DNA from: a plasmid
DNA length: 33,568 nt
Reading direction: 5' to 3' (one strand)
NCBI RefSeq assembly: GCF_988242995.1
Contig: NZ_OZ547045.1
Below the pieces are notes generated by a model. The model was not told where the DNA came from and ran no database searches. It was given only the letters and a program-made list of their open reading frames with translations. The translations under genes and the position numbers were made by a program. Within the stretch, counting starts at the first letter, position 1; every line of letters starts with the position of its first letter. Of this stretch, positions 13,069 through 30,117 are shown one piece after another.

Positions 13069-13953
13069 GTGACAGATAAATCAGTACCAGCGAAGCAGAT
13101 AAAAACGGTAAACACCGGAATCGCGATTAAAGAGAATCCCCCCAAAGGGGATGATATGGCATTCACCCATTCGATATTGTGTCAAGTTGGCCTCCCCCGC
13201 TCTAAAGTGGATGGCCGGGAGTTCATGAGAAAATCAGGCGATGCCTGGCTAGTTGTCCAGGCCGGCTGGCTTGATGAAGGAAGCGGCCCGGTAGAACAAC
13301 CGATCCCCTACGGCTCAATGCCCCGTTTAGCGCTCGCCTGGGTATCGTCGTATGCACTCCGCAAAAAGACCCGCGAAATACCGATCGGTAAGAGTGCTAA
13401 TGAGTTCCTGCAATTAATGGGTTTATCAGGCGGCGGCAGACAATACAAAACACTACGCGAACAAATGCACGCGCTGGCAGCTTGCCGGTTGCAGTTAGGT
13501 TTTAAAGGTCGTTCTTTCAACGGCCAGCCTGTAGAGCAATTCGATGCCTGGCAGAAAGACGACCAAAGCGGCCAGCTAAGTTTATGGCCGGGCGTAATGA
13601 CCCTTTCAGAAGGGTACTTTAATGGGCTGATTGATAGCGCCGTTCCTCTCGATAACCGCGCTCTGTACGCGCTAAAGGGTTCGGCATTGTCGTTAGATGT
13701 TTATACGTGGCTTGCGCATCGTCTACACCGCATCCAGGGCCGACCGATTAAACTTCACTGGATGAATTTACGGGAGCAGTTTGCGCAAGAGTATATGGGT
13801 AAAGACCCTGACAAAGATTTTAAGAAGAAATTTCTTCCAGCTCTGCGCGACGTACTGACTGTATACCCACAGGCGAAGGTGGATAAAGTCACCGGAGGGA
13901 TATTACTGTATCCGTCTCCCCCACCTATCCCGTTCAAGGAAGGAAAAAAATAG
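13069..13953 (+). CDS. repA: Putative replication initiator (RepA-like)
   Basis: 294 aa; immediately upstream of the iteron array and DnaA boxes, downstream of resolvase. Assignment is mainly by context. Confidence 0.65.
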   Translation: MTDKSVPAKQIKTVNTGIAIKENPPKGDDMAFTHSILCQVGLPRSKVDGREFMRKSGDAWLVVQAGWLDEGSGPVEQPIPYGSMPRLALAWVSSYALRKKTREIPIGKSANEFLQLMGLSGGGRQYKTLREQMHALAACRLQLGFKGRSFNGQPVEQFDAWQKDDQSGQLSLWPGVMTLSEGYFNGLIDSAVPLDNRALYALKGSALSLDVYTWLAHRLHRIQGRPIKLHWMNLREQFAQEYMGKDPDKDFKKKFLPALRDVLTVYPQAKVDKVTGGILLYPSPPPIPFKEGKK

Positions 13954-20473: not shown

Positions 20474-21113
20474 TACTTAGGGCGTTCCCTGCGGGCCGGG
20501 CTTTCGTGCTGCGCATCGAGCCAGGCAAGCTGTCTCGCCCCTTCGGGCTTCAATCCCTAACGCCTCCGGGCTTCGCCCTCCGCGCTCCGCTTGGCCCCCA
20601 CGCCCTGCGCCGGACTTGCCCCGCCTACGGCGGCCCCGCCCCTCCGGGGTGGCTTCGCCATCCTCTGCCAGCGGCACCGGCGCTAACGTGCCTGTAGGGG
20701 CGCTGGCCGCGCTGCGGCCATCCCCCCAACACCCGGATAAATCGCGCCCGGCCCGTCGCTACGCGCCAGCCCGCCCGCTCAACCGGGCCGTTGTGACGGG
20801 CCACTGTTCCGGCAGCGGCATCGTGTGACAGCCCGCTAAAACCGGCTTTGCAGGGAGGGGGGGGGCGCGTCTCCCGGTTTGATCCCGCAAGGCCCGGCAA
20901 TTTGACCACGTCGCCCAGGTTGAGATCGGCGCAATTGCCTTTTATTTGTCGGCATCGGCGCTAAATTTAAGTAAATTTACCGTACTATATAATGATACTT
21001 AAAGTTGACTTTTTAGGGGGGAAAATCTATACTTTATTTACGGTTAGCAATGGTGCTGACCGACCCGGAACCAGCGGCGGCAACCGCTCCGGGTAATCTG
21101 CGAAGGAAAATGT
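20474..21113. repeat. CUP-like repeat, full copy C
   Basis: Near-identical to copy B over about 640 bp. Confidence 0.9.
21005..21061 (+). promoter_or_regulatory. Cassette promoter P4 (TTGACT-17-TATACT) with leader hairpin
   Basis: -35 at 21005..21010, -10 at 21028..21033, inverted repeat at 21042..21061. Confidence 0.7.
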
Positions 21114-22306: not shown

Positions 22307-23074
22307 TTAGGCTGCCTGGTATTCTGCCTTTCCGCAGTGTTCGCCGCCACAGTACAGAATTAGGCCCGGTTTCCCCCAAACGTTGGTATGGCATTTCGGG
22401 CAGGTGTATTTTGTCCGGTTTGATTTATTAACCGGCGTATCCGGTGGCGGGTTTACCAGGGAAAGGGCTTGCGTGATCTCATCATCCAGCTCGCCATTGT
22501 CGCTGTAACCCTCATCATCATCGCCATCATCAACATAACCTTTGCCGTCTGCGCCGGTTGGCGTTGGTGGCGTTGGTTTGTGCGGTGGGAACCTGTCCAG
22601 CCAGCTCAGTTTAAACTCCGTGGTTAGCAACTCCTTGCAGGCTGTATCAAACGGGCCGCCGTCCTCGATGTAGTGGCTCATCGACTCACCGACGCGCTTT
22701 CCTCCGGGCTGGCCGCTGTCGGATGGTATCAGGCCGATGCGCTCCATCATCGCCGCCCACTCTTTATTGTGGTATCCACGGCGTCCCGGTTGGCCGGTGT
22801 GTTGTTGGTACTGGTGAACCATTTCATGCACAAGCGTGGAAAGTGTGTCGCGTATCGTGCGGATCGAGAAATAGACCGGATTCATGGCGATTTCATCAAC
22901 GATTTGGCCGGTTGTGCGGCCAACAAAACGGGCATTTGAGAAATAGCCAAACGTTCGTTTTTCGCGCTGAAGGGTGATTAGGCAGGGCGGCAGCGTACTA
23001 TCAAACAGCCGCTGATTGAAAAATTCGTATGCGCGTTGAAGCTCGTCGTAAGTTTCCTGGGTAGGGATGATCAT
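22307..23074 (-). CDS. SprT-like zinc metalloprotease-domain protein with C-terminal zinc ribbon
   Basis: HEMVHQY (HExxH) motif, acidic linker, CPKCH...YCGGEHCG; start taken at ATG 23074 (TGAGG RBS); ORF track extends to 23113 across the operator repeats. Confidence 0.7.
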   Translation of the reverse strand: MIIPTQETYDELQRAYEFFNQRLFDSTLPPCLITLQREKRTFGYFSNARFVGRTTGQIVDEIAMNPVYFSIRTIRDTLSTLVHEMVHQYQQHTGQPGRRGYHNKEWAAMMERIGLIPSDSGQPGGKRVGESMSHYIEDGGPFDTACKELLTTEFKLSWLDRFPPHKPTPPTPTGADGKGYVDDGDDDEGYSDNGELDDEITQALSLVNPPPDTPVNKSNRTKYTCPKCHTNVWGKPGLILYCGGEHCGKAEYQAA

Positions 23075-23095
23075 AGCGGCCTCATAAATTAATTT

Positions 23096-23141
23096 CTGGA
23101 TTGTGCAATCCATTTTATTGCTTATGGATTGTGCAATCCAC
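23096..23141. promoter_or_regulatory. Two copies of the palindrome GGATTGTGCAATCC in the promoter region upstream of the SprT-like gene
   Basis: Copies at 23098..23111 and 23126..23139; the same 14-mer occurs three times inside the stbA-like gene. Confidence 0.6.
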
Positions 23142-23287: not shown

Positions 23288-23656
23288 TCAGTGCAGCAGG
23301 AACGTTATAGCCGCCGCGCCGAGCGCTCCACCAACAAAGGAACAGACAACCGTGATAATCAGTATCTGCCTGATAAGCGCTTTCGAAAACCCTGTATGCG
23401 CCCCGGCCAGACGTTCAAAAAATTGTTCGCTAACCTTCTGCTCCTTCTTCAGAGTGTTGACCAGCTCGCGCTGGCTTGCGATCACTTCTGTTTTCGCAGT
23501 CTCCGATGATTTTGCTATCGCGTCGGAGGCTTTATCCAGCCGTTCTATTGCTTCGGTAACGCTTACACTTACACTTTCCAGTTTTGAGGTGATTTCTTTA
23601 GCATCGCCTAAAAACCAGTCCATCAGGACATCTAATTTATCAGGTTGCTTTTCCAT
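23288..23656 (-). CDS. Hypothetical coiled-coil protein with C-terminal TM anchor (third gene of the stb-like operon)
   Basis: 122 aa; helical N-terminal part, hydrophobic C-terminus. Confidence 0.55.
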   Translation of the reverse strand: MEKQPDKLDVLMDWFLGDAKEITSKLESVSVSVTEAIERLDKASDAIAKSSETAKTEVIASQRELVNTLKKEQKVSEQFFERLAGAHTGFSKALIRQILIITVVCSFVGGALGAAAITFLLH

Positions 23657-23657
23657 A

Positions 23658-24368
23658 TTATTCAGCCGTTAATATTTCAAAGGTGCGATCAAGATTACGT
23701 TTAACCGGTAATGCTAATTTCATCCAGCGATAACGACGCGCAGCCGCCGCACGTTCATCGGCATCGGTGCAAGTTTTAGCTTTTGCTTTAAAGGTTTCTG
23801 GATCTTCTGCCAGCAGTTCTTCAAACGAAATTTTGTGATACGCGAGGTATTCATAAATTTCACTTTCAAAAACGGCGGCATCTTTATGAATAGAGGCTTT
23901 TTTAGAATCTTTCGCCCATTCATATACCGAAGCAATATCCTCCTGCGGAGTCGATTTAATGCGGTTAGGCAGAAGAACAATTTTAGATTTAGGAACGCCA
24001 GCGGCACTTAACGCGAGGGCGGTCTTAATACTTTCCTGCCATGCTTTATCATCCGGGGTGACAGGAATCAGATATTTATCAAATTCGTCAATTGCACCCT
24101 CATATTTTGTCATGGTAGAAAGAAACCGCTCAACGTTCGACGCGCCAATATCCACGATGGCATTATCTTCAAATACGATTTCTTCAACGAGTTGACCAAA
24201 GTTATCGCCGGTTAAGCTCATCACTTCATCAACACCCAAATCCGCAGCCGACATATTGATTGTCTCGATGGCAAAGAATTTAGCGCCAGCCATGCGAGGA
24301 TACAGCAGGTATGACGAAATAATGGTTTTGCCGACGCTGCCACTGTAATTCATTACTGCAATTTTCAT
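23658..24368 (-). CDS. stbB: ParA/StbB-like partition ATPase
   Basis: 236 aa; N-terminal deviant Walker A (KIAVMNYSGSVGKT); position as in R388/pKM101 stb operons next to oriT. Confidence 0.75.
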   Translation of the reverse strand: MKIAVMNYSGSVGKTIISSYLLYPRMAGAKFFAIETINMSAADLGVDEVMSLTGDNFGQLVEEIVFEDNAIVDIGASNVERFLSTMTKYEGAIDEFDKYLIPVTPDDKAWQESIKTALALSAAGVPKSKIVLLPNRIKSTPQEDIASVYEWAKDSKKASIHKDAAVFESEIYEYLAYHKISFEELLAEDPETFKAKAKTCTDADERAAAARRYRWMKLALPVKRNLDRTFEILTAE

Positions 24369-24380
24369 CTGTAAGCTCCT

Positions 24381-24815
24381 TTAGAAACCTTTCTTATTAC
24401 CTACGCTACCTTTGAATGAGGTTGCGACTTTCTTTGCCTCATCACCAATTTTTTTAAAATCGGTATCGGATAAAAATTCTTTGTTCCCGCCCATATCCTC
24501 AACTAATTTTTCTGGTTCTGGATTGTGCAATCCAGTTTCCACCGGTTCCGCTTTCTCCTGCTCTTTTGGATTGTGCAATCCAGTATTTACCGTACTTTCT
24601 GGATTGTGCAATCCACCTTTTTTGCGTTTCAATCTTGCCCGGTACAAGGCCATATCTAACGCTTTCACAGTCACAGAAAAGCTGTATTCACTATCAAGAA
24701 GTTGAGCAATTTCTTGCCTACTAATACCCTTGTCTAACAAACCTTCAATCTCATCAAGACGCGCTCTTACAGCCGCAGCGAGATTGCGAGGTTCCAGTAA
24801 AAGGTCTTTTTTCAT
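24381..24815 (-). CDS. stbA: StbA-like DNA-binding protein with N-terminal HTH and C-terminal GLHNP repeats
   Basis: 144 aa; first gene of the operon divergent from oriT; three in-frame GLHNP repeats encoded by palindromic 14-mers. Confidence 0.5.
   Translation of the reverse strand: MKKDLLLEPRNLAAAVRARLDEIEGLLDKGISRQEIAQLLDSEYSFSVTVKALDMALYRARLKRKKGGLHNPESTVNTGLHNPKEQEKAEPVETGLHNPEPEKLVEDMGGNKEFLSDTDFKKIGDEAKKVATSFKGSVGNKKGF
24518..24616. repeat. Three intragenic copies of the operator-like palindrome (C)TGGATTGTGCAATCCA(G)
   Basis: Copies at 24518..24535, 24566..24583 and 24599..24616; spacings 48 and 33 bp. Confidence 0.85.
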
Positions 24816-24839
24816 ACCACCCCCGCTTGTCGAATTTCA

Positions 24840-25290
24840 CTATATGGCAGCCTGTTTTAGCTGTCAATCGGTTTTTGTAGTATTTCAGTAGTATTCCTGT
24901 AGTAATTCAGTAGTAACGCTTGTCGATACCGCTCATTTTTGTAGTATATCTGTAGTAATGGCTATTTCAGTTTGTAGTATTTTAGTAGTAATTCAGTAGT
25001 ATCGGTGTAGAAAACTTTCATGCAAGCATGAAAGTGGTGAATGTGAACGCTTTTTGAGCGTTTTATGCGTGTGTAAGACCTGTTTCTCCCTTAAAAAAGG
25101 CGTGTTATGGTATCCCTTAATGGCTATACACCATACGCAATTACGATTTTCATCGTAAATGCTTGAAAACAAAACAAATTATTCTAATTTGTGTTTTCAT
25201 ATGTAATACACTACGTATTACATATGTGTGTCTAAGCCGCATATATGCTAGATTTAACTGTATTACATCGGTATTACATCAAGGAAACCC
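24840..25290. other. oriT region: 11-bp direct repeats, inverted repeats and a putative nic site
   Basis: About 10 copies of (T/A)GTAGTA(T/A)(T/A)nn in 24876..25010; IR ACTTTCATGCaaGCATGAAAGT (25014..25035); IR CATATGTAATACactacGTATTACATATG (25198..25226) followed by GTGTGTCT|AAGCC. Confidence 0.65.
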
Positions 25291-25638
25291 ATGCCAACAA
25301 TCAGTTTAAGAGTGACCGAAGCGCAAAAAATCGACCTTGAATTTCGTTCGGAGGGCAACGTATCGGACTACATCAAGCAACAGCTTTTTGGACAAAAAGA
25401 GAGTGCCAGCGAAGTGATCTCCCGGCTTGATAAACTTCTGGAACGTCCTGTTTCAGAGCATCAAGCAGCCGGGCGAGATAGGTACATCGAGGCTATGTTG
25501 ATCGAGGTGTTATTGATACTTCGCCAGGTGAGTAAAGCAGATGCGCAGAAAGTAGCCGGTGGTGAAATTCGGCGCTTAGGGCTGGAGCCGTGGTCAGCAG
25601 AACTGGCCCAGGAAAGAGAGGAACAGAGTCATGAATGA
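25291..25638 (+). CDS. trwA: Relaxosome accessory protein (TrwA/TraK-like, ribbon-helix-helix)
   Basis: 115 aa; N-terminal MPTISLRVTEAQK beta-strand typical of RHH proteins; directly upstream of the coupling-protein gene. Confidence 0.7.
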   Translation: MPTISLRVTEAQKIDLEFRSEGNVSDYIKQQLFGQKESASEVISRLDKLLERPVSEHQAAGRDRYIEAMLIEVLLILRQVSKADAQKVAGGEIRRLGLEPWSAELAQEREEQSHE

Positions 25639-27208
25639 AGCGGATAAGGGTAAAATTTGCCTGGGAGCATTGCTGTTTACCCCTCTAGTTACGTGGTTTA
25701 TTGCTGCAAAATCATTGTATGGATTTACGCCAAAAGATGCGCGTGAACGTCTGGTTTTGCTTATTCAACAGACCTTTGATTTATGGCCGTTATGGGGCGC
25801 TTTATTAGCCGGTGAGATAGTTGCCATTATAGGGCTTGTCATCTTTTTTAAATTTAACCACCAGATATTCAAAGGCGCACCATTTAAGAAAATATACCGT
25901 GGCACACGGCTTGTTTCAAAAAGAGCTTTAGCCTCATTAACCAAAGAAAGGGAGCCGCAAATAACGATTGCTGATATTCCAATTCCTACTAAAGCAGAGG
26001 CTACGCATATTTCTATAGCCGGTGCTACAGGCGTTGGTAAGTCAACAATATTTGCTGAAATGATGAAATGTTGTTTAATGCGCGGCAAGATGGAGCGCGT
26101 AGCTTCAAAGAAAGACCGCATGATAATACTAGATCCAGACGGTGATTTTCTTTCTCGCTTTTATAAGAAAGGCGATAAGATTTTAAATCCCTACGATGCC
26201 AGAACGGAGGGGTGGGTATTTTTTAATGAAATTAAAAGTGATTTTGACTTTGAGCGGTTCGGTGTTTCAATCGTACCTACAGCGAAAGATTCACAAACAG
26301 AAGAATGGAATGGATACGGTCGCCTTTTGTTTACCGAGGTAGCGCGGAAGGTATTTAACACAAGCCGAAATCCAACAATGGAAGAAGTATTCTATTGGAC
26401 AAACGAAGTACCATTAGAAGAACTTGAAGGATATGTCAGAGGAACTAAAGCGCAGGCTTTATTTGCCGGTAGCGGTCGGGCCGTGGGTAGCGCTCGCTTT
26501 GTGCTTAGTAATAAACTTGCCGCGCACCTGAAAATGCCGACAGGAGATTTTTCAATTCGTGAATGGCTAGACGATCCAAACGGTGGGAATTTATATATCA
26601 CCTGGACTGATGAAATGCGTGAAGCACTGAAATCACTTATTTCATGCTGGACAGATAGCATTTTCTCTATTGTGTTAGGGATGAGTTCAAGCCATACCCG
26701 GAAAATCTGGACATTTATAGATGAACTGGAATCCCTTGATTACCTACCTTCATTGCGTGATGCGTTAACTAAAGGCCGCAAAAAAGGGCTTAGAGTTGTC
26801 ACCGGCTATCAATCGTATTCACAGGTTATCAGCATCTATGGCAGCGATGTAGCCGAAACCCTTTTATCTAACCATCGTACATCCGTTGTCATGGCCGCCG
26901 GTCGCCTGGGTGAAAGAACACTGGAATTTGTCTCTAAATCATTGGGTGAGATTGAAGGTGAAAGAGAGAAAACAGGAATTAGCCGCCGCTTTGGTCAGTT
27001 GGGAACAAAAAATACCAATGAAGATCACAAGCGCGAACGGGCAGTAACGCCAACCGAAATCGCTACGCTGGATGATTTGACCGGCTACATAGCGTTTCCG
27101 GGAAGTCTGCCAGTGGCAAAATTTGAGACTCATCACGTTAAATACACTCGTTCTAACCCCGTACCGGGCGTTGTCTTACGTGAAAGCACCGCATTTGCAG
27201 GAATGTAA
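25631..27208 (+). CDS. trwB: Type IV coupling protein (VirD4/TrwB family)
   Basis: 525 aa; N-terminal TM helices, Walker A GATGVGKST; overlaps trwA end. Confidence 0.9.
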   Translation: MNEADKGKICLGALLFTPLVTWFIAAKSLYGFTPKDARERLVLLIQQTFDLWPLWGALLAGEIVAIIGLVIFFKFNHQIFKGAPFKKIYRGTRLVSKRALASLTKEREPQITIADIPIPTKAEATHISIAGATGVGKSTIFAEMMKCCLMRGKMERVASKKDRMIILDPDGDFLSRFYKKGDKILNPYDARTEGWVFFNEIKSDFDFERFGVSIVPTAKDSQTEEWNGYGRLLFTEVARKVFNTSRNPTMEEVFYWTNEVPLEELEGYVRGTKAQALFAGSGRAVGSARFVLSNKLAAHLKMPTGDFSIREWLDDPNGGNLYITWTDEMREALKSLISCWTDSIFSIVLGMSSSHTRKIWTFIDELESLDYLPSLRDALTKGRKKGLRVVTGYQSYSQVISIYGSDVAETLLSNHRTSVVMAAGRLGERTLEFVSKSLGEIEGEREKTGISRRFGQLGTKNTNEDHKRERAVTPTEIATLDDLTGYIAFPGSLPVAKFETHHVKYTRSNPVPGVVLRESTAFAGM

Positions 27209-27210
27209 AC

Positions 27211-30117
27211 ATGCTGAATATTACGACTATTACCCGTCAGCGAGTGGATAAGGTTGTCGATTACTACTCTGATGGCGCAGACGATTATTATGCAAAAGAC
27301 GGCAACGCGATGCAGTGGCAAGGCGCTGGCGCGGAGGAATTGGGCCTAACCGGAGAGGTTGAGCAACAACGATTTGCAAAGTTGCTCGATGGTAAAATTA
27401 CGGATGATATTTCCGTGATGCGTAAGACGGCCAACAGCGAAAGCAAAGAGCGGTTAGGTTATGACCTCACGTTTTCCGCGCCCAAAGGCGTTACGCTTCA
27501 GGCGCTGGTCGGTGGTGATAAACGTATAATCGAAGCGCATGATCGGGCCGTGGCAAAAGCTATTGAGGAAGCGGAACGGTTGGCGTTAGGCCGCTTTACC
27601 ATCAACAAAAAAACGCACGTTGAAAACACCAATAAGCTGATTGTTGCGAAATTCAGACATGAAACTTCTCGTGAGTTAGATCCTGAATTACATACCCATG
27701 CGTTTGTAATGAACCTCACCAAAACCAGTGATGGTAAATGGCGTTCACTCACTAATGACGGCATTGTTAACTCGCTTACTTTATTGGGTAACGTCTATAA
27801 ATCGGAGCTGGCAAGAGAGCTGGAGCTGGCAGGTTACAACCTGCGTTATGACCGTAACGGCACATTTGATTTAGCACACTTCACCCCGGAACAAACCGCA
27901 CACTTCAGCCAGCGCAGCCAGCAAATTGAAGATGAGTTAGCAAAAGCGGGATTGACCCGCGAAACAGCCAGCCATGAACAAAAAAATGCGGCCGCACTTA
28001 AAACCCGCAAAAGCAAAAGCGAAGTGGATCGCGATGTTCTCTATGAGGGCTGGAAAACTCGCGCTAAAGAGCTTCAGATTGATTTTGATAGTCGTGAATG
28101 GAAAGGCGCAGCCAAAGACGACATAGCGCGTAATAAGCAACCAGAGCTGGAAAAGCCGATTGAGTATCAGGCTGACAAGGTTATGACCTTTGCTATCCGT
28201 TCGCTCACCGAACGTCAGTCCGTGATCACCGAGCGGGAGCTGATGGATGTAGCAATGAAGCATGGCTATGGCCGTTTAACCGTCAATGATATACGGGCAG
28301 CGAGAGAGCGGGCCATTTCCTCCGGCAACCTCATCAAAGAAGAAACCCGATACGCAGCGGCCACAACCAATAAAAAACAACAGAACGTTGCCATGACACG
28401 CGAACAATGGGTAACGGAACTGGTGAAAGCTGGCCGTAATAAAGATGAAGCCAGAAAACTTGTAGATAAGGGCATCACAAACGGGCGATTGGTACAGCAA
28501 AAAACACGCTATACCACGCAGTTAGCCCAACAACGAGAGCGCAATATCCTGAAACTGGAGAGGGAAGGGCGCGGGAAAATCCAGGCGCCATACACCCGCG
28601 AGTTTAGCGAAGGTTGGTTAGCCAGCAGAACACTAAAACCCGAACAGTTAAAAGCGGTCATGGGGATTATCCACACCTCTAACCAGTTTATTTCTGTACA
28701 TGGGTTTGCCGGTACTGGCAAAAGTTATATGACCAAATCGGCAGCGGATTTTCTCAAAGAGCAGGGCGTACACGTCACCAGTCTTGCCCCCTATGGTAGC
28801 CAGGTAAAAGCGCTACAGGCTGAAGGGCTGGAGTCTCGTACACTCCAGTCTTTCCTCCAGGCGTCAGATAAAAAAATTGGCCCCGGATCAGTCGTTTTTA
28901 TTGACGAAGCCGGGGTAATCCCTGCCCGTCAGATGGAGGAAACTATGCGCGTGATCCGTGATGCGGGCGCACGAGCGGTATTCCTGGGCGATACAAAACA
29001 GACCAAAGCCGTTGAAGCGGGTAAACCTTTCGAGCAGCTTATCAAAGCTGGCATGGAAACAGCCTATATGAAAGATATTCAGCGCCAGAAAGACCCGGAA
29101 TTGTTGAAAGCGGCGCTGAATGCAGCGGAAGGAAAAATAAAGGCATCGCTGGCGCACGTAACCAGTATCGTTGAAGAAAAAAACCATGATCAACGCTATC
29201 GCCGGATTGTCGGGGATTATGTGGCAATGGCACCAACAGAGCGGGCAAACTCCCTGATTATCACCGGCACGAACGACAGCCGGAAAAAAATCAATGAGTA
29301 CATTCAGGCCGAGCTGGGGCTGAAAGGGCAGGGCTTGAATTACCAGCTACTGAATCGCCTTGATACCACTCAGGCCCAGCGCCAGCACAGCAAGTATTAT
29401 GAGAAAGGAGCCGTAATCATCCCGGAGCGGGATTACAGTAACGGGTTGAAGCGTGGGGGCGTTTATACCGTTCTCGATACCGGCCCCGGCAATAAACTAA
29501 CGGTAAGCGACAGCAGCGGCGACACTATCGCATTTTCACCGGCGCGATTTTCAAAGTTATCCGTGTACTCAGTAGAAAAAACGGAGCTGGCCGTGGGCGA
29601 CCAGGTAAGGATCACCCGTAACGATGCACACCTTGATTTAGCGAACGGCGACCGTTTTAAAGTTAAGGGCGTCCAGAGTGGTGAGGTATTACTGGAGAAC
29701 GAAAGAGGGCGTCTGGTAAAAATTGATGCCAGCAAGCCTATGTACTTAGGGCTGGCATACGCCTCGACCGTACATAGCGCTCAGGGGCTGACCTGCGATA
29801 AAGTTTTTATCAATATGGATACCCGATCACTCACAACGGCCAAAGATGTTTATTACGTAGCTGTCACCCGCGCTAAACACGAAGCCGTCATTTATACCGA
29901 CGATGAGAAAAAGCTGGATAAAGCGGCCAGCCGTGAAGGGTTCAAAACCGCAGCGCTTGAGCTGGAACAACTCAAACGCTACGCCAAAGAGCAGCAACAT
30001 GATTCCCGCGAAAAAGGCCGCGACAAAGCAGAGCCGACACCGGAGAAAGATAATTCCCGGCGTAAAGGCAAGGGCCATGAAAAAAATAACGACGACAGAG
30101 CATTTAACCCGCTCTAA
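27211..30117 (+). CDS. trwC: MOBF relaxase-helicase (TrwC/TraI family)
   Basis: 968 aa; N-terminal relaxase domain with tyrosine pairs (DYYSDGADDYYAKDG), HTHA motif (ELHTHAF), C-terminal helicase Walker A GFAGTGKS. Confidence 0.95.
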   Translation: MLNITTITRQRVDKVVDYYSDGADDYYAKDGNAMQWQGAGAEELGLTGEVEQQRFAKLLDGKITDDISVMRKTANSESKERLGYDLTFSAPKGVTLQALVGGDKRIIEAHDRAVAKAIEEAERLALGRFTINKKTHVENTNKLIVAKFRHETSRELDPELHTHAFVMNLTKTSDGKWRSLTNDGIVNSLTLLGNVYKSELARELELAGYNLRYDRNGTFDLAHFTPEQTAHFSQRSQQIEDELAKAGLTRETASHEQKNAAALKTRKSKSEVDRDVLYEGWKTRAKELQIDFDSREWKGAAKDDIARNKQPELEKPIEYQADKVMTFAIRSLTERQSVITERELMDVAMKHGYGRLTVNDIRAARERAISSGNLIKEETRYAAATTNKKQQNVAMTREQWVTELVKAGRNKDEARKLVDKGITNGRLVQQKTRYTTQLAQQRERNILKLEREGRGKIQAPYTREFSEGWLASRTLKPEQLKAVMGIIHTSNQFISVHGFAGTGKSYMTKSAADFLKEQGVHVTSLAPYGSQVKALQAEGLESRTLQSFLQASDKKIGPGSVVFIDEAGVIPARQMEETMRVIRDAGARAVFLGDTKQTKAVEAGKPFEQLIKAGMETAYMKDIQRQKDPELLKAALNAAEGKIKASLAHVTSIVEEKNHDQRYRRIVGDYVAMAPTERANSLIITGTNDSRKKINEYIQAELGLKGQGLNYQLLNRLDTTQAQRQHSKYYEKGAVIIPERDYSNGLKRGGVYTVLDTGPGNKLTVSDSSGDTIAFSPARFSKLSVYSVEKTELAVGDQVRITRNDAHLDLANGDRFKVKGVQSGEVLLENERGRLVKIDASKPMYLGLAYASTVHSAQGLTCDKVFINMDTRSLTTAKDVYYVAVTRAKHEAVIYTDDEKKLDKAASREGFKTAALELEQLKRYAKEQQHDSREKGRDKAEPTPEKDNSRRKGKGHEKNNDDRAFNPL

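Follow-up and report, generated by a model that had tools for sequence, protein, structure and literature searches.

The transfer origins (oriTs) of R388, an IncW plasmid, and of the IncN1 plasmids R46, pKM101 and pCU1 are among the closest described counterparts of the locus analysed here. In R388, nic is GCGTATTGTCT|ATAGCC, as given by the R(25+18) oligonucleotide, and saturation mutagenesis has revealed the critical, family-conserved nucleotides to be G17, T18, T23 and a purine at +1 (PMC4176350). Protein binding in this oriT has been assigned to numbered inverted repeats (IRs), with IR2 and nic bound by TrwC, IR3 by IHF, and IR4 (site sbaB) by TrwA (PMC4814116). Nicking is stimulated when TrwA binds oriT, and efficient conjugation depends on this binding (PMC4814116, PMC3264647); TrwA also represses the trwABC promoter (PMC3264647). 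In the stbA promoter of R388, StbA binds 9-bp repeats with 2-bp spacers, arranged in two sets of five (stbS), which modulate conjugation besides acting as a centromere and an operator (PMC3098194; bioRxiv 2022.04.29.490116). Where plasmids carry stb, these genes are located 3' of nic on the strand that is nicked and are the first to enter (PMC3098194).

For the IncN1 group, the pKM101 oriT57 oligonucleotide, TGTGATAGCGTGATTTATCGCGCTGCGTTAGGTGT|ATAGCAGGTTAAGGGATAAAAA, is cut in vitro by TraI after GGTGT to yield a 35-mer (PMC9868005, Table S1). IncN3 plasmids are self-transmissible at high frequency and are efficient helpers in mobilising virulence and carbapenemase plasmids in Klebsiella, with their oriT region reported only as an oriTfinder prediction (PMC9430514).

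The plasmid and its stb–traK intergenic region

The window, i.e. the whole 33,568-nucleotide stretch of plasmid DNA analysed (NZ_OZ547045.1), has a backbone that is overall ~90% identical to IncN3 plasmids in PLSDB. Its stb–traK intergenic DNA matches 97 PLSDB plasmids from Enterobacteriaceae at up to 97.5% identity, including the IncN3 prototype, pN-Cit; these are mostly typed as IncN, MOBF and MPF_T, and 92 of them are conjugative. By sequence, the plasmid is thus classified as an IncN3-like (pN-Cit-like) plasmid of resistance type, with MOBF/MPF_T transfer functions. The genes relevant to the locus are:

13069–13953: repA, ~11 kb from the repeats described below
23288–23656, minus strand: stbC, above the NCBIfam curated cut-off
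23658–24368, minus strand: stbB, above the NCBIfam curated cut-off
24381–24815, minus strand: stbA-like gene, 144 aa, first of the stbABC operon (NCBIfam, BLASTP)
25291–25638, plus strand: traK/trwA-like accessory protein gene, 115 aa (BLASTP)
25631–27208, plus strand: gene for a TrwB/TraJ-type type IV coupling protein, T4CP (Pfam TrwB_AAD_bind, 1.5e-86)
27211–30117, plus strand: gene for a MOBF relaxase-helicase, 968 aa (Pfam TrwC, 1.2e-80; NCBIfam MobF, 1.9e-83; cut-offs passed)

The region of interest, 24816–25290, is the gap between the minus-strand open reading frame (ORF) at 24381–24815 and the plus-strand ORF at 25291–25638. A sequence-only reading of the window had placed it between divergent stb-like and trwA-like operons, with which both the ORF map and the family scans agree. 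This layout, with stbABC divergent from an accessory protein/T4CP/relaxase operon, is common to the R388 and R46 records, and R46, pKM101 and pCU1 share with the window both the divergent stbABC and traK-traJ-traI operons and arrays of 11-bp repeats beside stbA. The StbA and TraK proteins of R46 are only 35% and 27% identical, respectively, to those of the window.

The StbA-like protein matches NCBIfam StbA_2 with E = 3.8e-23 and 82 bits, under the curated cut-off of 100, and gives BLASTP values of 1e-14 against R46 StbA and 3e-5 against R388 StbA. The TraK-like protein matches R46 TraK over its full length (4e-10) and R388 TrwA in the C-terminal part (2e-8). A Pfam scan of the two proteins gave a match to neither, and a search of the PDB returned nothing for the TraK-like protein and a weak match (E = 0.76) to 7pc1, an StbA structure, for the StbA-like one; the homology of both is therefore drawn from NCBIfam and pairwise BLASTP.

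We consider 24816–25290 to be the transfer origin of a conjugative MOBF11 plasmid of IncN3-like type, built to the same modular layout as the R388 and R46/pKM101/pCU1 origins and with its nic on the minus strand, at a probability of roughly 0.88. The model draws on homology, conservation, covariation within a hairpin stem, covariation between repeats and StbA, and geometry, from which the protein–DNA contacts and the cleavage are predicted. An oriT of the MOBF, IncW/IncN type had already been proposed by the sequence-only reading, and in this respect it is borne out by the gene layout, the homology of the nic core, the hairpin and the relaxase. At the level of sequence, the region displays the defining features of a MOBF11 IncW/IncN-type oriT and of an stbS-like array. 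It is an element of a known kind in a known plasmid group, to which the R388/R46 paradigm can be fitted feature by feature, leaving concepts of conjugation unchanged.

Read from stbA to traK, the proposed order begins with the stbA promoter and three arrays of 11-bp repeats, an stbS-like centromere/operator whose binder would be the N-terminal HTH domain of StbA. These would be followed by two conserved IRs, the minus-strand nic, the relaxase-recognition hairpin, and an AT-rich IR that is probably a bending or IHF region. At the traK end, an inverted pair and a direct pair of GTATTACAT motifs would be bound by the TraK/TrwA-like accessory protein. In pN-Cit, pKP2648-34 and about 90 PLSDB records of IncN3 plasmids, the intergenic region is 92–97.5% identical to that of the window, and the nic core, hairpin and TraK motifs are identical; the window differs in having one repeat unit fewer than pN-Cit, and in small changes in a variable tract at 25228–25231.

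The predicted minus-strand nic and relaxase hairpin

Two features make up the predicted relaxase target:

25122–25138, minus strand: nic core, 5'-GCGTATGGTGT|ATAGCC-3', from alignment and as a unique consensus match, with the predicted cut at 25128/25127
25137–25162, minus strand: relaxase-recognition hairpin, IR2-like, GCATTTACGAT-GAAA-ATCGTAATTGC, with 11-bp arms and one mismatch

The oriT regions of R388 and R46 were oriented like the window, and the three were then aligned, giving one strongly conserved block: GGTATCCCTTAAT-GGCTATACACCATACGCAAT in the window, TTATCCCTTAACC-TGCTATACACCTAACGCAG in R46 and GGTATCCTTAAATCTGGGCTATAGACAATACGCACC in R388. On the opposite strand this block is GCGTATGGTGT|ATAGCC. 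The pKM101 nic substrate sequence is also found in R46, on the strand that reads towards stbA, and GCGCACCGAAAGGTGCGTATTGTCT|ATAGCC of R388 sits opposite the trwA coding strand, again reading towards stbA. As R46/pKM101 and R388 have defined nic sites, their alignment with the window predicts the homologous cut to lie between 25128 and 25127 on the minus strand. Here this strand reads 5'-GCATTTACGAT-GAAA-ATCGTAATTGCGTATGGTGT|ATAGCCATTAAGGGATACC (in shorter form, ATCGTAATTGCGTATGGTGT|ATAGCC), and within the longer stretch that spans the predicted nic, GCATTTACGATGAAAATCGTAATTGCGTATGGTGTATAGCCATTAAGGGATACC, the cut would fall after GGTGT.

G17, T18, T23 and the purine at +1 (A26) are all present in the nic core of the window, and position 21 (R388 numbering) is G, as in pKM101 and F. 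A consensus derived from the R388 and pKM101 nic cores, GCGT-N3-GT-N-T|AT(A/G)GC, has a single match in the window, at 25138–25122 on the minus strand, and one match in each of thirteen related loci, always opposite the traK/trwA strand. The core is also invariant in all of the IncN3-type relatives examined.

Set against its two models, the site is a hybrid in its U-turn, sharing GCGTAT with R388 and GGTGT with pKM101. R388 and the window have an identical order of elements, with GCGTAT and |ATAGCC flanking the U-turn and GAAA as the hairpin loop, whereas the U-turn itself has TTGTCT in R388 and TGGTGT in the window. On the strand running towards stbA, R46, pKM101 and pCU1 have, like the window, a nic core that finishes with GGTGT|ATAGC and a hairpin to its 5' side, but their U-turn is GCGTTAGGTGT rather than GCGTATGGTGT, and the pKM101 core as a whole is GCGTTAGGTGT|ATAGCA as opposed to GCGTATGGTGT|ATAGCC. 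The ‘TAG’ region of pCU1 is ‘ATG’ in the window, which agrees with R388 at this point; moreover, the R46-type hairpin is unlike that of the window in sequence, and the traK-proximal part of R46 is longer.

The hairpin arms occupy 25137–25147 and 25152–25162, and their GAAA loop is that of R388 IR2. As DNA, the hairpin folds at -10 kcal/mol (z = -4.6 against shuffles), and two positions of the stem have undergone compensatory A-T to G-C changes in related orphan oriTs of small plasmids.

The relaxase domain of the 968-aa protein shares 58% identity with R46 TraI and 55% with TrwC, and it carries a YY-X(5-6)-YY motif and a histidine triad, with the catalytic motifs intact: Y18, Y19, Y26 and Y27, together with H150, H161 and H163, are invariant in an alignment with R46 TraI and TrwC. 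In the PDB it matches 8a1b (5e-107), 3l57 and 1omh (1e-98), the crystal structures of R46 TraI and TrwC being matched at 5e-107 and 1e-98. The positions equivalent to pKM101 D3 and K188 are changed, to N3 and L respectively, so the fine specificity of this relaxase may depart from that of both models.

In the proposed mechanism, the relaxase would read the hairpin's proximal arm together with the U-turn in single-stranded form, GCGTATGGTGT, cut the minus strand between 25128 and 25127, and remain on the 5' end. The minus strand would then move 5' to 3' towards stbA, such that stbABC, ssb and the ardK-like leading genes enter first, and the traK, T4CP and relaxase genes last. The ssb, KorA/ArdK-like and DUF932 genes are encoded on the plus strand; the predicted minus T-strand would therefore be their template, as expected of a leading region.

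Repeat arrays and proposed accessory-protein motifs

The remaining elements of the intergenic region, in order from stbA to traK, are:

24839–24867, minus strand: sigma-70-like stbA promoter candidate, TTGACA-17 nt-TATAGT, 11/12 matches in a consensus scan, lying between array 1 and stbA and adjoining array 1
24876–24919, plus strand: repeat array 1, four units (W-GTAGTA-WWnn)
24940–24961, plus strand: repeat array 2, two units; pN-Cit has one more unit here
24973–25016, plus strand: repeat array 3, three GTAGTA units and one degenerate GTAGAA unit
25014–25035: perfect 10-bp-arm IR, ACTTTCATGC/GCATGAAAGT (arms 25014–25023 and 25026–25035)
25044–25060: short IR, AACGCT-TTTTG-AGCGTT, counterpart of R388 TGACCCT-N4-AGGGTCA
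25164–25199: AT-rich imperfect IR, IR3-like, fold z = -4.6, in a position analogous to R388 IR3 (IHF site)
25198–25226: perfect 12-bp-arm IR, CATATGTAATAC-N5-GTATTACATATG (arms 25198–25209 and 25215–25226), IR4-like and at the R388 offset, proposed site of the TraK/TrwA-like protein
25260–25279, plus strand: two direct GTATTACAT copies, 11 bp apart, just 5' of the traK ribosome-binding site, proposed second TraK site/operator

The sequence-only reading had counted about ten copies of an 11-bp direct repeat, and the count is correct. Ten units start at 24876, 24887, 24898, 24909, 24940, 24951, 24973, 24984, 24995 and 25006, with exact 11-bp spacing within each of the three arrays, nine having the core GTAGTA and one GTAGAA. 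They are strongly concentrated in this region, which holds seven of the eight matches to WGTAGTAWW in the 33.6-kb window, where 1.2 are expected and none of 100 shuffles reaches eight; similarly, counting both strands, the window has 14 GTAGTA hexamers, 9 of them within these 130 bp. R388 and R46 have arrays of the same 11-bp period, with different cores: TTGCATCAT in two sets of five in R388 and GATGTA in R46, as opposed to GTAGTA in a 4+2+4 arrangement in the window.

Comparison among relatives links the repeat core to StbA. Plasmids with the core GTAGTA have an StbA 98–100% identical to that of the window, those with GTAGTT one that is 84–87% identical, and those with (T/A)GTC(T/C) one that is 61% identical. 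The substitutions concentrate in the N-terminal domain of StbA, whereas the StbA C-terminus and the nic core are constant, and TraK remains 91–94% identical with its motifs invariant. A sliding identity profile is that of a mosaic: against CP067554, stbB is 100% identical, and identity over 24500–25080 falls to 28–72%. That the repeat core tracks the N-terminal domain of StbA while TraK is constant favours StbA over an RHH protein as the binder, and the 11-bp repeats are best explained as an stbS-like array of candidate StbA sites.

Between the arrays and nic, the perfect 10-bp-arm IR, also noted in the sequence-only reading, was found as described. It folds as a single strand with z = -4.9 against shuffles, is invariant in all IncN3-type lineages, and has positional counterparts in R46 (GTATTCATGC/GCATGAATAC) and R388 (CCCAATGCGC/GCGCATTGGG). 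The window and R46, pKM101 and pCU1 have in common a TTCATGCAAGCATGAA inverted repeat.

On the traK side of nic, the window holds four copies of the 9-mer GTATTACAT, against 0.18 expected, all of them in this region: one inverted and one direct copy make up the 12-bp-arm IR, and two more direct copies precede traK. The IR, which has a single-strand fold z of -4.4 against shuffles, was correctly recognised as perfect by the sequence-only reading. Measured from nic, the copies lie at +74, +88, +133 and +144 in the window, compared with +74, +86, +130 and +141 for GTAGTG/CACTAC in R388. In both plasmids the proposed accessory-protein IR is thus at +74, and another two direct copies, spaced by 11 bp, come ahead of the start codon, the motif itself being CACTAC (with a CACTAC-N5-CACTAC direct pair) in R388 and GTATTACAT in the window. 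As the order of repeats matches that of R388, the 12-bp-arm IR is equated with IR4 and the AT-rich IR with IR3; that R388 IR4 is the GTAGTG/CACTAC repeat is taken here from the order of the numbered repeats and not from a printed sequence. Together, the 12-bp-arm IR and the direct GTATTACAT pair most likely make up a TraK-like accessory-protein site and operator, at which TraK would aid DNA melting and repress the traK operon. A simple consensus scan of the plus strand gave no clear sigma-70 promoter for traK. For the AT-rich IR, a possible role in IHF binding is proposed by analogy with R388, since a simple scan found no exact match to the IHF consensus, WATCAANNNNTTR, inside the intergenic region.

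A different role for the 12-bp-arm IR was envisaged in the sequence-only reading, namely that it is the relaxase hairpin and is followed by a plus-strand cut, GTCT|AAGCC, between 25233 and 25234. The sequence is there as claimed, 7 nt past the IR, as TGTGTCT|AAGCC, with TGTCTA at 25229–25234 on the plus strand (in context, CATATGTAATACACTACGTATTACATATGTGTGTCTAAGCCGCATATATGC). It has a certain appeal, in that a perfect IR is followed after 7 nt by TGTCT|A, the last five bases before and the first base after the R388 nic, and T21, T23 and the purine at 26 (R388 numbering) are matched. The R388 motif had been given correctly, but was sought on the trwA-sense strand, whereas in R388 it lies on the opposite one; a plus-strand nic would be on the wrong strand in comparison with R388, R46 and all relatives, transfer from it would lead with the traK, T4CP and relaxase genes instead of the stb side, and its T-strand would not be the template of ssb and the ardK-like genes. 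Positions 17 and 18 would be T and G, where the family has conserved G and T. Among eight IncN3-type plasmids, the proposed cut is preceded by TGTC, GAAT, TAAT, GTTC or GAGT, and nowhere else in the right half of the intergenic region is variation as great, whereas in the same plasmids the nic core is invariant and TraK is 91–94% identical. Relaxase-less small plasmids whose oriT core keeps the IR lack the plus-strand motif. Nor is TGTCTA enriched, with six copies in the window against 9.9 expected, so that it carries no statistical weight, and a much better nic homologue lies 106 bp away. Strand, critical nucleotides and conservation thus all argue against a cut at 25233/25234, which is very improbable and was rejected in favour of the homologous site on the minus strand, ~106 bases off; the 12-bp-arm IR is, in turn, not the relaxase-side repeat but the IR4-like, proposed TraK/TrwA-like site.

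Were this IR and the two direct GTATTACAT copies a transcriptional operator of the traK operon only, with no part in the relaxosome or nicking, their position immediately upstream of traK and the repression of the trwABC promoter by TrwA (PMC3264647) would be accounted for. This is unlikely, however, as hundreds of relaxase-less small plasmids that have no traK retain GTAATAC-N5-GTATTAC with its distance to nic unchanged, and R388 TrwA on oriT boosts nicking and is needed for efficient conjugation. Less probable still is the assignment of the 11-bp repeats to the TraK/TrwA-like RHH protein, or to replication as iterons. RHH accessory proteins often bind repeated oriT sites, and the sequence-only reading had offered such a protein and StbA as alternative binders. 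Of these, StbA is upheld and the RHH protein is not: changes in the repeat core parallel those in the N-terminal domain of StbA, with TraK nearly constant, a distinct motif in four copies, GTATTACAT, is found at the positions of the R388 TrwA sites, and the analogous repeats of R388 are bound by StbA (PMC3098194). Replication iterons were rejected, given that repA is ~11 kb away. StbA therefore stays the favoured binder of the arrays, and TraK that of the GTATTACAT motifs.

Orphan oriTs and a possible specificity cassette

About 150 small relaxase-less plasmids match 25095–25222 of the window at 72–76% identity, and a search with one of these retrieved 781 records, again mostly small plasmids, among which IncN3-type plasmids, at 73–77%, were the closest conjugative ones. 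The carriers of such orphan oriTs comprise several hundred relaxase-less Col-type plasmids of 1.7–18 kb from Enterobacteriaceae. Their nearest conjugative relatives are IncN3-type plasmids, at 72–77% identity, with none closer in PLSDB. The orphan core consists of nic, the hairpin, the AT-rich IR and the TraK-type IR, and its U-turn is either IncN3-type (GCGTAT GGTGT) or IncN1-type (GCGTTA GGTGT). Within the 12-bp-arm IR, it is the GTAATAC/GTATTAC core that these plasmids have kept.

It is tentatively suggested, at somewhat less than even odds, that an IncN3-type relaxosome may serve many parasitic small plasmids, and that the StbA DNA-binding domain, promoter and arrays (24500–25080) form a specificity cassette that can be exchanged and has at least three alleles, beside an invariant nic core. 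If both were true, the 12-bp-arm IR would be an element whose recognition hitch-hiking plasmids require, and the arrays a diversifying incompatibility/partition determinant. The analysis is useful in correcting the nic and strand: annotating IncN3-type plasmids, predicting which small plasmids are mobilisable by them, and designing oriT deletions and relaxase substrates all require that nic and the T-strand be placed correctly.

A further set of repeats lies outside the intergenic region. A 16-bp near-palindrome is present in three copies inside stbA, where it encodes GLHNP, and in two copies upstream of an SprT-like gene. The GLHN-coding palindromes are absent from R388 stbA, whereas R46 has near-palindromes in the same layout, with compensatory changes in their arms. 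This points to a DNA-binding factor as the putative reader; for the copies inside stbA, ArdK is an unlikely candidate, as it recognises TTGACA direct repeats (PMC9723621).

Orphan oriT cores and two candidate specificity residues of the relaxase

Window 25095-25222 is matched at 72-76% identity by an orphan oriT core present on hundreds of small Col-type plasmids (1.7-18 kb) from E. coli, Klebsiella, Salmonella and Shigella, which have no annotated relaxase. The core (loci L005-L008 and L015-L019) comprises nic, the hairpin, the AT-rich inverted repeat and a GTAATAC-N5-GTATTAC inverted repeat, and within PLSDB the IncN3 type is its nearest version on a conjugative plasmid. The U-turn, the single-stranded stretch between hairpin and nic, takes two forms among the orphan cores: it is of the IncN3 type, GCGTATGGTGT, in some and of the IncN1/pKM101 type, GCGTTAGGTGT, in others. 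Most of the small plasmids also have, on the opposite strand and ~40-80 bp past the orphan oriT, a conserved hypothetical ORF of 49 aa (e.g. WP_001138881.1), an observation made on L005, L006, L007, L008, L015, L017 and L019.

In pKM101 TraI, D3 and K188 contact U-turn G8 and T5. The window relaxase has N and L at the equivalent positions, and TrwC of R388 has T at the position matching K188:

27211-27219, plus strand, relaxase residue 3
~27772, plus strand, relaxase residue ~189

U-turn positions 5 and 6 read AT in the window and TA in pKM101, and residues 3 and ~189 may therefore be specificity determinants.

Variable segments flanking the conserved core

Between the TraK-type inverted repeat and the conserved TAAGCCGCAT lies a 4-bp hypervariable tract (25228-25231), which in relatives reads TGTC, GAAT, TAAT, GTTC or GAGT. 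These are the same bases that the sequence-only reading had taken as the core of a plus-strand nic site.

On the stb side, comparison with loci L009-L013 revealed a mosaic cassette at window 24500-25080, of which there are at least three alleles, distinguished by the repeat cores GTAGTA, GTAGTT and GTC(T/C). The cassette contains the 5' two-thirds of stbA, encoding the StbA N-terminal DNA-binding domain, together with the stbA promoter and the repeat arrays. It is flanked by stbB, with identity of up to 100%, and by the nic/traK side, which is at least 95% identical; its left boundary falls in the region of the GLHNP-encoding palindromes, and its right boundary near the 10-bp-arm inverted repeat.

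A near-palindrome in stbA and near the SprT-like gene

The window has five copies of a 16-bp near-palindrome, TGGATTG-TG-CAATCCA, all in a single orientation, where chance would give 0.01:

24519-24534, within stbA
24567-24582, within stbA
24600-24615, within stbA
23097-23112 and 23125-23140, upstream of the SprT-like ORF (22307-23113) or at its start

Each stbA-internal copy encodes the peptide GLHNP. The near-palindrome looks like a candidate operator for some protein, set within coding sequence. ArdK is probably not the binder, because its target is TTGACA direct repeats (PMC9723621). R388 has no copies, whereas those of pN-Cit, the IncN3 prototype, are likewise found at both stbA and the SprT-like gene. 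The layout is also the same in R46, with copies at 20733 and 20784 within stbA and at 30004 directly upstream of its SprT-like gene, but there both arms are altered in a compensatory manner (TGTATTG-CA-CAATACA), encoding VLHNT.
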